Positions 8,700-64,000 of a DNA stretch of 64,000 nt are shown one piece after another. Within the stretch, counting starts at the first letter, position 1, and each line of letters opens with the position of its first letter. Both the position numbers and the translations under genes were made by a program. Under the pieces are notes generated by a model. It saw only the letters and a program-made list of their open reading frames with translations, was not told where the DNA came from and did no database searches. Source of the DNA: Oscillospiraceae bacterium (lineage in GTDB: Bacteria > Bacillota > Clostridia > UMGS1810); the NCBI GenBank assembly GCA_021629085.1, contig JAJXRJ010000006.1:6660-70659 (forward strand), given 5' to 3'.

Positions 8700-8830
8700 C
8701 CCCTCAAAAAAACAGCGCCTACGATAAATAGGCGCTGCAAATGGCAATTTTTGCTCCCTACGATCGTGTGAACGAACAGGTTCAAAGGGTCAGGTTTTAC
8801 CTTCTCAACGCTTTTGCGTCCCCCTGCAAA
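8700..8830 (-). promoter_or_regulatory. TPP (THI-box) riboswitch with terminator expression platform
   Basis: The minus strand reads CAGGGGGACGC..GCGUUGAGAAGG..AACCUGACCCUUUGAACCUGUUCGUUCACACGAUCGUAGGGAGC. This contains the conserved UGAGA, ACCCUUUGAACCUG and GUAGGGA elements. It is followed by the hairpin AGCGCCUA/UAGGCGCU (8736-8714) and UUUUUUU. Confidence 0.9.
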
Positions 8831-8847
8831 CATCTGTAATTTTTTAC

Positions 8848-11061: not shown

Positions 11062-11109
11062 ATAGGATGGGAAAGTAAATATTGGAAAGGAGTTTTTACA
11101 ACCAGATAG

Positions 11110-11290
11110 GAGCGCCAGAACCGTGCAAATTTAAACGGTTGACGAGGTTGGGGAGTATCGAAACATTCGGCGGATGCCCCACGGTGCCTGCACCACCGTA
11201 AAAAGGTCGACAAATCCTCTGCGCAAGCGGTTGCACAAAACGGCCCGGTGTGAAACCCTTTGATTGATTCCCGAATGAAGGGGTGATTTT
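11110..11290 (+). ncRNA. glmS ribozyme: glmS glucosamine-6-phosphate-activated ribozyme
   Basis: AGCGCCAGAACCG...GACGAGG..GGGGAGUAUCGAAACAUUCGGCGGAUGCCCC...CCGUAAAAAGG matches the conserved glmS ribozyme core, with the cleavage site 5' of GCGCC. It lies directly upstream of glmS. Confidence 0.9.
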
Positions 11291-30430: not shown

Positions 30431-30507
30431 GCGCCCATAGCTCAGCAGGATAGAGCGACCGCCTCCTAAGCGGTAGGCCGGAGGTTCGAATCCTCTTGGG
30501 CGCGCCA
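30431..30507 (+). tRNA. trnR-CCU: tRNA-Arg (anticodon CCU), CCA encoded
   Basis: Hand-folded cloverleaf. Acceptor GCGCCCA/TGGGCGC, D stem GCTC/GAGC, anticodon stem ACCGC/GCGGT with loop CTCCTAA (anticodon CCT), T arm GGAGG-TTCGAAT-CCTCT, discriminator G plus CCA. Confidence 0.9.
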
Positions 30508-44204: not shown

Positions 44205-44330
44205 AAAAAGCCCTGCCTTTTCTCATCCAGACTGTACTGTCGGTTTTGGAATTGCACCAAATCCTGCGCAAATTTTGCGCTCGCGGACTGTCACCGCCGG
44301 TCGGGAATTGCACCCTGCCCCAAAGACACC
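44205..44330 (-). promoter_or_regulatory. FMN riboswitch (RFN element)
   Basis: The minus strand reads CUUUGGGGCAGGGUGCAAUUCCCGACCGGCGGUGACAGUCCGCGAGCGC...GGUGCAAUUCCAAAACCGACAGUACAGUCUGGAUGAGAAAAGG. This contains the conserved RFN blocks. Confidence 0.92.
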
Positions 44331-44355
44331 TGTTATGAAATTTTGAAAAAATTGA

Positions 44356-61230: not shown

Positions 61231-62247
61231 TCAACCCAGCGTCTTTTCTTCCAGTGCGAGAAGCGCTTTCACCGACTGCATCAAATGGTCAAACCGCTCG
61301 GGCTTGATGGACTCCTCGCCGTCGCACAGCGCGGTTTCGGGACTATTGTGTACTTCTACCATCATGCCGTCCGCGCCCGACACCGCGGCGCACTTCGCCA
61401 TGGGCTCCACCAGCCGCCAGCTCCCGGTGGCGTGGCTGGGATCCACAATCACAGGAAGATGTGTGAGCCGCTTTAACACCGGCACCGCGCTCAAATCCAG
61501 GGTGTTTCTGGTTTGGGTTTCAAAGGTGCGGATGCCGCGTTCGCACAAAATCACCGCTTCGTTGCCCTCGCTCATGATGTATTCCGCCGCCATAAGCAGC
61601 TCTTCAATGGTGGCTGAAAGGCCGCGTTTTAAAAGGATGGGCTTGTCAACCTTGCCCACTGCCTTTAAAAGCTCAAAATTTTGCATGTTGCGCGCGCCCA
61701 CCTGGATGATGTCGGTGTATTTGCAAATGGTGTCCAGCGCGTCACAGCTCATCACCTCGGTCACAATGGGCAGCCCCGTGGCGTTTCTCGCCTTGGCCAA
61801 AAGCTTTAAGCCATCCAGTCCCATGCCCTGGAACGAATAGGGCGAGGTGCGGGGCTTGAACGCGCCGCCGCGCAATATGGTTGCGCCGCTCTGCTTGACC
61901 GCGCGCGCAATGCCCACCACCTGCTCTTCACTCTCCACCGAGCACGGCCCGGCCATCACGGCAAAGTGCCCGCCGCCAATTTTGGTGCCGCACACATCCA
62001 CCACCGTGTCGTCGGGGTGGAACATCCGGCCGGCCATTTTATAGGGGGAGGACACGCGCAGCACTTTTTCCACGCCGGCCAGGTTTGCAAGCGTGTTTTC
62101 GTTGATACTGCCCACGTCGCCAATCAGCCCCAATACCGTCTGCTGGGTGCCGTAGCAGGGGTGGATTTCCACGCCCTGGGCGGTGATCACTTCTTCAATT
62201 TTTGCATATTGCTCCTCAGTGTAGCCTTGTTTTAAAATGACAATCAC
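61231..62247 (-). CDS. aroF: 3-deoxy-7-phosphoheptulonate (DAHP) synthase, type I-beta
   Basis: 338 aa, GTG start with an AGGAGG Shine-Dalgarno sequence. N-terminal ferredoxin-like extension (MIVILKQGY...) and a KDO8PS-like core (AGPCSVES, RGGAFKPRTSPYSFQG, DPSH). Confidence 0.9.
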   Translation of the reverse strand: MIVILKQGYTEEQYAKIEEVITAQGVEIHPCYGTQQTVLGLIGDVGSINENTLANLAGVEKVLRVSSPYKMAGRMFHPDDTVVDVCGTKIGGGHFAVMAGPCSVESEEQVVGIARAVKQSGATILRGGAFKPRTSPYSFQGMGLDGLKLLAKARNATGLPIVTEVMSCDALDTICKYTDIIQVGARNMQNFELLKAVGKVDKPILLKRGLSATIEELLMAAEYIMSEGNEAVILCERGIRTFETQTRNTLDLSAVPVLKRLTHLPVIVDPSHATGSWRLVEPMAKCAAVSGADGMMVEVHNSPETALCDGEESIKPERFDHLMQSVKALLALEEKTLG

Positions 62248-62282
62248 TAAAAAAACCTCCTGCGATTTTATGAAAATAAAAA

Positions 62283-62311
62283 ACGGAATCCATTTTGTAA
62301 ATGATTTCCGT
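62283..62311 (-). terminator. Leader terminator hairpin upstream of aroF
   Basis: The minus strand reads ACGGAAAUC-AUUUACAAAAU-GGAUUCCGU followed by UUUUUAUUUU, 35 nt upstream of the aroF GTG. Confidence 0.55.
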
Positions 62312-62496
62312 CATTTTTCCGATACGTTTCACTGCAAAAACAGCGCGCAAAGCTCAGCACTCATTTACAATTGAATTTTTCCATGCATAATAGCCCAGGC
62401 CAAACAGGTCTAGGCTGTTAATAAAGAAAAATTGTACGTTGAATGCCGGTTTTCGCATGCGGATTGGTTCCCTTCCGTTTCAATTGTGAAATACTT
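62312..62496 (-). promoter_or_regulatory. Structured 5' leader of the aro operon (unclassified riboswitch/attenuator candidate)
   Basis: 13-bp closing helix: 62492-62479 pairs with 62375-62363, with one bulged C. Internal hairpin at 62416-62392. A 10-nt segment (62370-62361) is perfectly complementary to 62304-62295 inside the terminator. Confidence 0.45.
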
Positions 62497-62502
62497 TTTT
62501 CC

Positions 62503-62531
62503 ATTATAAAGCACAAAGGTCAATTTGTCAA
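62503..62531 (-). promoter_or_regulatory. Perfect consensus sigma-A promoter of the aro operon
   Basis: Minus strand: TTGACA (62531-62526, inside the last codons of thrC), exactly 17 nt, TATAAT (62508-62503). Confidence 0.7.
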
Positions 62532-64000
62532 GAAATTTTTTGTCGCGAAAAACAGCTGGTCTTTTTCGTAAGCTGCATCAAAACGGGCAGGCTTTTGTTT
62601 TAAGTCTTTTAATGCCGCGGGGATGGGTTGGCCGCTCACCTTTTCCAACCGGTCCAAAAGCGCAAATTCGTCTGCATCCAATGCCGCTTCCGGCCCGGCA
62701 ATGGCGGTGAGCACACTCTCGTTAAATTTATATGGATTGGCGGTGGAGGCGATGATGGTTTTGGTTTTGTCGCCCGTTTCATCCACATAGCGGTCGTAGA
62801 CAAATTTGGCCACCGCGGTGTGCGTATCCATCAGATACGCGTCTGATGTAAAGGTATTTGCGATTGCCGCCTTTGTCTCTTGGTCGGTGGCAAAGCCGGC
62901 ATAGAATGTGCTGTTAAGCGCTTGCTTTATTGTTTGCGGCACCGTGTAGCGCCCGGTTGCCTTTAGCTGCTCCATCAAGCCGCGCACCAGCTTGTCGTCC
63001 CGCCCGGATGCCAAAAACAAAAACCGCTCCAAATTGCTGGAGATGAGAATGTCCATAGACGGCGAGATGGTGGTGAAAAATGTGCGGTTTTTATCATACA
63101 CCCCGGTGTTTATAAAGTCGGTCAGCACGTTATTTTGGTTGGACGCGCAAATGAGCTTGTGTACGGGAAGGCCCATCTGTTTGGCGTAATAGGCCGCCAA
63201 AATGTTGCCGAAATTCCCGGTGGGCACCACAATGTTCACCGCTTCGCCGGATGCGATTTCGCCGTTTCTGAAAAGGTCGGCATAGGCGGCGATGTAATAG
63301 ACGATTTGCGGCGCCAGCCTGCCCCAGTTGATGGAGTTGGCGGACGAAAACAGGCAGTTTGCCTTTGCGGCCTCTTTGGCGCAGTCGGGATTCCCAAAAA
63401 TCTGCTTCACGCCGGTTTGCGCGTCGTCAAAGTTGCCGCGCACCGCCGCCACGCCCACATTGGCCCCCTCCTGGGTGGTCATTTGCAGCTTTTGAATGGC
63501 AGAAACCCCGTCTTTTGGGTAAAACACCAAAATTTTGGTGCCCGGCACATCGGAAAAGCCCGCCAGCGCGGCCTTGCCTGTGTCGCCTGACGTGGCGACC
63601 AAAATGAGGATATCCTTTTTCTCGCCCGATTTTTTTACCGCGCGGGTGAGCAGATGGGGCAAAATCTGCAGCGCCATATCTTTAAACGCGCAGGTCGGCC
63701 CGTGCCACAGCTCCAGCACATAGGCCGTATCATTGAGCTTATAGACCGGGGCCACCGAATCTGAGCCGAATTTTTCTTTGGAATACGCACTGTCTGCGCA
63801 GTCTTGCAGCTCGTCGTAGGAATAGTCGGTCAAATACATGCTCAGGATGCGCGCTGCAAGGACGCTGTAGGGCATTTTTGCGAGCTCTGGAAAGTCGGCT
63901 GTGCGCAGCTTTGGGATTTCACAGGGCACAAACAGCCCGCCGTCCGGCGCAATGCCGGTCATAATCGCATGCGCGGAGGAAACGCGCAAATCTTTGTTCC
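62520..64000 (-). CDS. thrC: Threonine synthase (5' end outside window)
   Basis: PLP-dependent ThrC sequence (GGLFVP, CAFKDMALQ, ATSGDTGKA). The frame stays open upstream of the ORF-track TTG start (..NKDLRVSSAHAIM..), so a few N-terminal codons lie beyond base 64000. Confidence 0.9.
   Translation of the reverse strand, partial: NKDLRVSSAHAIMTGIAPDGGLFVPCEIPKLRTADFPELAKMPYSVLAARILSMYLTDYSYDELQDCADSAYSKEKFGSDSVAPVYKLNDTAYVLELWHGPTCAFKDMALQILPHLLTRAVKKSGEKKDILILVATSGDTGKAALAGFSDVPGTKILVFYPKDGVSAIQKLQMTTQEGANVGVAAVRGNFDDAQTGVKQIFGNPDCAKEAAKANCLFSSANSINWGRLAPQIVYYIAAYADLFRNGEIASGEAVNIVVPTGNFGNILAAYYAKQMGLPVHKLICASNQNNVLTDFINTGVYDKNRTFFTTISPSMDILISSNLERFLFLASGRDDKLVRGLMEQLKATGRYTVPQTIKQALNSTFYAGFATDQETKAAIANTFTSDAYLMDTHTAVAKFVYDRYVDETGDKTKTIIASTANPYKFNESVLTAIAGPEAALDADEFALLDRLEKVSGQPIPAALKDLKQKPARFDAAYEKDQLFFATKNFLTN

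Follow-up and report, generated by a model that had tools for sequence, protein, structure and literature searches.

In the pheL and trpL leaders of Escherichia coli, transcription attenuation follows a 1:2 / 2:3 / 3:4 logic, in which segment 1 contains the regulatory codons and segment 2 is covered by a ribosome that has reached the stop codon. Leader-peptide attenuation has long been seen as mainly proteobacterial and actinobacterial, with T-boxes doing the job in Firmicutes (PMC1262725, PMC2965389). For Firmicutes, a report on Bacilli describes His leader peptides as the first "regular" ones, and leader peptides are known to be exchanged for T-boxes and vice versa (PMC2965389). Two systems of this kind have been described in front of aroF. 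One is the aroR peptide of Corynebacterium glutamicum, which carries Phe-Tyr-Phe, is encoded in front of aroF and reportedly responds when Phe is limiting (Neshat et al. 2014, as cited in PMC11802643). The other is the motif uORFC-13-1, for which Brewer et al. 2021 (PMC8632094) described 24 representatives, only in Acholeplasma and environmental sequences, and which occurs exclusively upstream of aroF. Here, we have analyzed the leader of about 250 nt that is located on the minus strand between the promoter and aroF in a 64-kb stretch of an Oscillospiraceae bacterium (64,000 nt of contig JAJXRJ010000006.1, in the following called the window). The leader is very probably a ribosome-mediated leader-peptide transcription attenuator for the aroF-aroB-aroA-aroC-pheA-aroE-aroQ-aroK operon. 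The mechanism is ordinary, and the element belongs to a broad family, widespread in Clostridia, that appears to be uncatalogued.

The list of open reading frames (ORFs) and their translations contained a leader ORF of 34 codons plus TGA, encoding MRKPAFNVQFFFINSLDLFGLGYYAWKNSIVNEC (62458..62354; all leader features are on the minus strand). It includes the runs FFF and YY as well as a W, and 8 of its 34 residues are aromatic. A Shine-Dalgarno (SD)-like motif, GGAAGGG, is situated at 62470..62476, 11 nt 5' of the leader ATG; in the relatives described below the leader ATG is preceded at 9-11 nt by GGAG, AAGGA or GAGG. A previous inspection of the DNA, the sequence-only reading, had stated that a usable leader peptide was missing, which turned out to be wrong. 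The Phe triplet UUU UUC UUU (codons 10-12, 62431-62423) is proposed to represent the main regulatory codons. The second aromatic group consists of the Tyr-Tyr-Ala-Trp codons UAU UAU GCA UGG (62392-62381), and ribosome stalling at this site may be regulatory as well. Such a peptide would be expected for an operon that is responsible for the common aromatic precursor and the Phe branch.

The entire leader was predicted to fold with -70.7 kcal/mol, compared with -53.4 +/- 4.1 kcal/mol for dinucleotide shuffles (z = -4.2). In the unmasked minimum free energy (MFE) structure, segment 1 (62425..62448, codons 4-12) forms the 5' arm and segment 2 (62355..62382) the 3' arm of a 1:2 stem, with the helices 62448-62440:62363-62355, 62439-62437:62369-62367 and 62433-62425:62382-62374. 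Pairing of the 5' half of the ORF with segment 2 yielded -34.0 kcal/mol, compared with -16.3 +/- 3.4 kcal/mol for shuffled sequences (z = -5.2). Because of the MFE structure and this z value, the Phe codons are placed in segment 1. The 1:2 stem encloses a nested hairpin with the core AGCCUAGACC-UGUUU-GGCCUGGGCU at 62416-62392, which had already been noticed in the sequence-only reading and which extends to 62420-62388 in the MFE structure (-13.5 kcal/mol).

Segment 2 includes element B (UUGUAAAUGA, 62370-62361), which has element C (UCAUUUACAA, 62304-62295) as an alternative partner. B is a perfect 10-nt complement of C, and the duplex energy of -12.3 kcal/mol compares with -7.6 kcal/mol for shuffles (z = -2.3). 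Segments 3 and 4 form an intrinsic terminator hairpin (62312-62282) with an energy of -10.7 kcal/mol; downstream of it comes UUUUUUAUUUU, with the U-tract at 62283-62273. Within this hairpin, element C extends from the inner part of the 5' arm across the loop to the first base of the 3' arm. A simple terminator scan did not pick up the hairpin, probably because of its internal A·A mismatch. Both the B:C antiterminator and the terminator had been postulated from the letters of the DNA alone, and the two results agree with the view that a terminator and a mutually exclusive antiterminator control the aro operon. The leader stop codon (62356-62354) begins 5 nt past B, and therefore, a terminating ribosome would be expected to cover B with its footprint. 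The arrangement in the window is the 1:2 / 2:3 / 3:4 arrangement of classical attenuation, and the apparent aptamer domain corresponds to the 1:2 stem of such an attenuator and the hairpin nested in it.

A 21-nt insertion (62330-62350) between the leader stop codon and the terminator is present only in the window and corresponds to a gap in all aligned relatives. In the folds it gives rise to a small hairpin (62330..62345, helix 62345-62340:62335-62330), which competes for B in some of the ribosome-masked folds described below.

An exact look-up of the window AroF (P0001) gave no record, and the nearest AroF proteins found in a word-index protein search were 68-72% identical. The close-relative contigs (L162/163, L164/165/169-171 and L166/167) all carry a leader that can be aligned with the window leader, and the alignment represents four independent close lineages, whose AroF proteins are 69-72% identical to that of the window. 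The common layout consists of a promoter, an SD motif, the ORF with an invariant (G/A)UAAAUGAG at its 3' end, and CUCAUUUA(C/U) in the terminator. The leader peptides are MAHLLLTAVYFFSFSLGFYFFCPGLFAYKNCIGCLDK in L162, MINHLNFATEYFYFISLGFIFYIYFAGYFACEKFNSCKLINEI in L164 and MSNRLSFATEYYYYFSLGYYFAGYFACNKLNSCKVINEG in L166. The first run of aromatic codons begins with codon 10 in the window and with codon 10-11 in each of the four relatives. The genes upstream vary among the close relatives (peptidase S8, ispD and others), showing that the leader travels with aroF.

The consensus structure predicted with RNAalifold comprises pairing of the 5' half of the ORF, to which the first aromatic run belongs, with the B-containing 3' end, as well as the nested hairpin and a separate terminator. 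In this structure, 93.5% of the alignment cells were paired, compared with 35-48% with slid partners, and compensatory changes were found in 11 pairs, a result matched by none of 500 shuffles. The values for the individual helices were 95.8% paired cells and 2 compensatory pairs for the nested hairpin, 98.3% and 4 for the terminator, and 98% and 1 for B:C, in which 7 of the 9 pairs are invariant. One G-C pair of the B:C helix in the window is A-U in all other lineages. Thus, of the pairings proposed in the sequence-only reading, the hairpin and B:C are conserved in the relatives, but the A:B helix discussed below is not. Element B is kept as RNA irrespective of the reading frame, as L162 reads GAU AAA UGA and the others read AUA AAU GAG. 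Unlike B, the aromatic runs are conserved at the codon level. A comparison of near-identical variants showed six substitutions in the ORF, of which five are located at third codon positions and four are synonymous.

The relatives differ in some further features around the leader. L164, L169 and L170 have an extra spacer of about 60 nt (…AAACUCGGCCCGCGCAAUUAAAAUU…) between the terminator and the aroF SD motif, which is missing in the window, L162 and L166. In L166, aroF is followed by a polysaccharide deacetylase gene, and in L172-L174 by a prephenate dehydrogenase gene and then aroB. As the operon content after aroF differs, one leader type controls different gene sets. A 6S RNA is encoded downstream of the aroF locus in L166 (5311-5494, plus strand). 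Locus L161 (contig JARCCX010066626.1) was near by bit score, and it was rejected as a close relative because of internal repeats and the lack of a usable upstream region. Its gene 79-1800 encodes a 573-aa "AroF" (P0002) with two DAHP_synth_1 matches and contains internal DNA repeats, which suggests a mis-assembly or a fused gene call.

The analysis was extended to 160 loci of AroF relatives with 56-64% identity, among the matches listed, from species-representative genomes and metagenomes. Mini-ORFs that start with ATG at most 300 nt upstream of aroF and encode 5 or more aromatic residues within a stretch of 8 were present in the sense direction at 92 of 152 loci, compared with none in antisense and one in shuffled sequences. 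When GTG and TTG starts and a distance of 350 nt were allowed, the numbers were 100 of 150 loci, compared with 8 antisense and 5 shuffled cases. Typical peptides are MKKVFNYYFYNFYFFRPY, MNKLFATAYYYYFFSREKR and MKLNGFYFYGYYFFEPIS. The peptides contain on average 5.4 Phe, 4.8 Tyr and 0.3 Trp residues, their lengths range from about 14 to more than 50 aa, and conservation is almost confined to the F/Y runs. A terminator, defined as a hairpin of -6 kcal/mol or lower plus a T-run between the ORF and aroF, was found in 91 of 98 distinct examples, at a median distance of 35 nt past the stop codon. The last 25 nt or so of the ORFs are complementary to the 5' arm of the terminator, with a mean of -14.0 kcal/mol compared with -10.1 kcal/mol for shuffles; z was below -1.64 in 48% and below -2.33 in 28% of the loci. 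The median extent of this pairing is from -24 to 0 relative to the stop codon. In summary, about two thirds of the sampled aroF loci have a Phe/Tyr-rich leader ORF and a terminator, and the source labels include Lachnospiraceae, Oscillospiraceae, Ruminococcus, Christensenellaceae, Clostridium magnum, Veillonella and Phascolarctobacterium.

T-box leaders were found directly upstream of aroF in 4 of 20 loci without an aromatic mini-ORF (L013, 2696-2945; L026, 2686-2941; L069, 2664-2924; L093, 2235-2467). They occupy the same spot, indicating that the two sensor types replace each other. A loose F-A-(A/N)-(E/A) motif was observed immediately before the first aromatic run in loci L001-L160; of 96 cases, 34 have F at position -4 and 35 have A at position -3. 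This motif could reflect a nascent-peptide effect, RNA pairing or the spacing of a second ribosome.

For the window, the following mechanism is proposed, in which we infer the translation of the ORF, the ribosome footprints, the folding order and which of Phe, Tyr and Trp is the effective amino acid. Transcription would start at about 62496, and a ribosome would translate the 34-codon leader ORF. With an ample supply of charged tRNA-Phe, and perhaps of tRNA-Tyr and tRNA-Trp, the ribosome would reach the stop codon and its footprint would lie on B, and after its release segment 1 would pair again with segment 2. With B covered or the 1:2 stem formed again, C would be free, the terminator would form, and transcription would end before aroF. 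When Phe-tRNA is scarce, the ribosome would stall on UUU UUC UUU within segment 1, and the 1:2 stem would be blocked. Consequently, B would pair with the emerging C, the inner half of the terminator would be blocked, and RNA polymerase would read into the operon.

This switch was simulated by equilibrium folding with the ribosome modelled as a mask of about 27 nt. In the window masks, the P-site for Phe was set at 62430 instead of 62431, which did not materially change the masks. For L164, B paired with segment 1 when no ribosome was present, it paired with C at 7 of 7 positions when the ribosome was stalled at the first aromatic run, and it was covered when the ribosome was positioned at the stop codon. 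The masked folds switched cleanly in L164 and L162.

The window leader did not behave in the same way, and several of its properties weigh against the proposed attenuator. When the Phe codons were masked, B paired with element A (AUUUCACAAUUGAA, 62479..62492), a window-specific sequence complementary to 62375-62363, or with other AU-rich partners instead of C. When A was masked in addition, B took other AU-rich partners, and the MFE structure was still devoid of B:C. Six ribosome-masked states were tested with an enforced B:C helix. The cost relative to the MFE was 1.0-1.7 kcal/mol for four of them and 4.2-4.6 kcal/mol for the remaining two, compared with 3.8 kcal/mol without ribosome. As isolated duplexes, A:B with -13.1 kcal/mol and B:C with -13.2 kcal/mol have practically the same energy, and it is the competition by A and other AU-rich partners that keeps B:C out of the MFE structures. 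The distance of 11 nt between the SD-like motif and the ATG is long. The window leader is also at the weak end of the family, with a maximum of 4 aromatic residues in 8, compared with 5-8 in most relatives. Lastly, most B:C pairs are invariant rather than covarying, because only four independent close lineages were available. As B:C is not favoured at equilibrium, antitermination in the window must rest on the folding order or on occlusion of A. Alternatively, the attenuator of this lineage might simply be leaky or weak.

In the sequence-only reading, A had been given a central role as the 5' strand of a P1 helix with B. The complementarity in the window is real, with a duplex energy of -13.1 kcal/mol compared with -7.0 +/- 2.3 kcal/mol for shuffles (p between about 0.01 and 0.06 for different assumed transcription start sites). 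In a wider test in the window, 18% of the shuffles were equally good, and in the unmasked MFE structure the A region forms a small local hairpin (62491-62487 with 62482-62478). The P1 helix has no counterpart in the relatives, as duplex tests between the 5' untranslated region (UTR) and B revealed no comparable pairing in any of the four related lineages (p = 0.23-0.75), and the pairing of B that is conserved is the one with the Phe-codon region. Of the A:B cells in the alignment, 56% were paired, compared with 23-47% in slid controls. Therefore, A:B was not accepted as a part of the conserved mechanism, and A may be a fortuitous or a lineage-specific competitor for B. A broader automated UTR test gave apparent matches in L164 and L169, which were discarded; in these cases sequence flanking B paired with the untranscribed -10 box.

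A hybrid attenuator, in which the leader peptide is combined with A as a lineage-specific anti-antiterminator, is quite unlikely. In such a system, read-through would require a Phe-stalled ribosome and also the occlusion of A, e.g., by the next ribosome initiating at the ATG one ribosome-length behind, as the size of a 30S footprint would suggest. The position of A at -34 to -21 from the ATG, directly 5' of the SD motif, would suit this idea, as would the distance of about one ribosome footprint between the start codon and the Phe run, which begins with codon 10, like the first run of the relatives with codon 10-11. The pairing of B with A when only the Phe-stalled ribosome was masked points in the same direction. 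However, A is not conserved, its complementarity might have arisen by chance around the palindrome CAAUUG, and masking of A did not lead to the choice of B:C. It is also quite unlikely that the lineage has added a second input to the leader-peptide mechanism, with A stabilised or occluded by something other than the stalled ribosome (an initiating ribosome, a protein or perhaps a small ligand), which would turn the leader into a two-signal attenuator.

Even less probable is a translation-independent, riboswitch-like RNA, in which a ligand, a protein or a tRNA would stabilise the domain closed by A:B and thereby set C free for the terminator. An undescribed RNA with such a sensor had been the conclusion of the sequence-only reading. 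In its favour, A:B in the window is nominally above chance, A:B and B:C are mutually exclusive as well as isoenergetic, the domain enclosed by A:B contains a conserved hairpin, and known families do not match. The matches were sought with Rfam. At the gathering score, a scan of the whole window found no family at the leader, and at E <= 10 the region 62150-62650 gave only chance-level matches to unrelated families (E 0.6-10). A leader family was also not detected in a scan of 20 related loci. The T-box model (RF00230) had no match in the window at the gathering score or at E <= 10, and the same model detected the T-boxes in the four other loci. The Rfam amino-acid leaders (Phe_leader, Trp_leader, the leu/phe leader and others) had no match in 62150-62650 at E <= 10. 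Regarding TRAP, no run of at least five (G/U)AG triplets was found, and only four GAG/UAG triplets are present in 255 nt. An Rfam aptamer match was likewise not obtained, and the region that is conserved is an ORF with codon-like conservation. The earlier statement that the leader contains no T-box, no TRAP repeats and no known riboswitch class therefore agrees with the scans and the triplet count, and the Rfam comparison of the leader, which it had suggested, yielded no relevant family.

Further evidence against a riboswitch-like RNA comes from the nature of the conserved sequences. The putative domain is an ORF that shows aromatic runs, third-position substitutions, and a start codon and SD motif that are kept. 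A conserved unpaired core of the aptamer type was not seen, and the conserved single strands are aromatic codons. In the unmasked MFE structure, B pairs with the segment of the Phe codons and not with A, and A:B lacks a counterpart in the related lineages. The proposed sensor was thus mistaken, as the leader codes for a peptide rich in aromatic residues, and the relatives have kept this ORF.

It is exceedingly improbable that the leader encodes a functional small hydrophobic peptide or an untranslated ORF, with the terminator being a constitutive partial one or a small RNA end and amino acids not being sensed, since, although the peptide is hydrophobic and the aroF 5' UTR of Clostridioides difficile shows premature termination without an assigned mechanism (10.1101/2020.08.10.244764), the peptides across loci are variable in length and conserved almost only in F/Y runs, the 3' ends of the ORFs are systematically complementary to the terminator, and the element is linked to aroF regardless of the upstream gene.

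The promoter of the leader is of the sigma-70 type, TTGACA-17-TATAAT (62531-62503, minus strand), and matches the consensus at 12 of 12 positions. Its -35 box overlaps the final codons of thrC (ORF 62520-63989), as had been described from the sequence alone. From the promoter, the transcription start site is predicted at about 62496 on the minus strand. Equivalent promoters (TTGACA-N16-17-TATAAT/TATAGT) are located at the same position in L162, L164, L166 and L169. The first gene of the operon, aroF, encodes DAHP synthase (NF006421, 502 bits) and, together with its own SD motif, covers 61231..62260 on the minus strand. It has the SD motif GGAGG at 62260-62256, an N8 spacer and a GTG start codon at 62247. 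The NCBIfam assignments gave the order thrC / aroF aroB aroA aroC pheA(CM-PDT) aroE aroQ aroK leuA and thus matched the shikimate gene order from aroF through leuA that had been read from the DNA before. Elsewhere in the window, the Rfam scan found ordinary RNAs, namely an FMN riboswitch (44211-44331, minus strand), a glmS ribozyme (11100-11256, plus strand), a TPP riboswitch (8738-8835, minus strand) and a tRNA (30431-30504, plus strand).

Taken together, the tempting interpretation as an orphan riboswitch is replaced by a conventional mechanism that can be tested. As far as the scans show, the leader family is absent from Rfam 15, and a description of a Phe/Tyr leader family in Clostridia or Negativicutes was not found in the searchable, incomplete literature, in which the only related cases were those of Corynebacterium and Acholeplasma and the unexplained termination at aroF of C. 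difficile. Cataloguing of the family would improve the annotation of gut anaerobes, in which the mini-ORFs are now uncalled or labelled as hypothetical, and would offer a simple handle on the regulation of aromatic amino acids in these organisms.

The closest described systems resemble the window element to different degrees. Like the element, aroR of C. glutamicum is a short Phe/Tyr leader ORF directly upstream of a DAHP-synthase operon, and ribosome stalling reportedly raises read-through. In contrast, it belongs to another phylum, the Actinobacteria, its peptide has only a Phe-Tyr-Phe motif, and no homology in sequence or structure was found. Compared with aroR, the element in the window has a much longer aromatic-rich ORF and a hairpin nested in the 1:2 stem. 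The motif uORFC-13-1 is a prediction of comparative genomics, and it has a promoter, a ribosome binding site, an upstream ORF with Phe codons, an extra paired substructure and an adjacent terminator. The motif was not encountered in the Rfam 15 scans of the window leader and the 20 related loci. Compared with the verbal description of the motif, the window family differs in its occurrence in Clostridia and Negativicutes and in the dominance of mixed Phe/Tyr runs.

In comparison to pheL and trpL, the window element stems from a different phylum, has a longer ORF, a conserved hairpin nested in the 1:2 stem and mixed Phe, Tyr and Trp regulatory codons, and matches no Rfam leader. The T-boxes in front of aroF share the position, the gene, the terminator/antiterminator output and the signal, i.e., the charging of tRNA. 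In contrast to the leader-peptide attenuator, they have no ORF and bind the uncharged tRNA directly.

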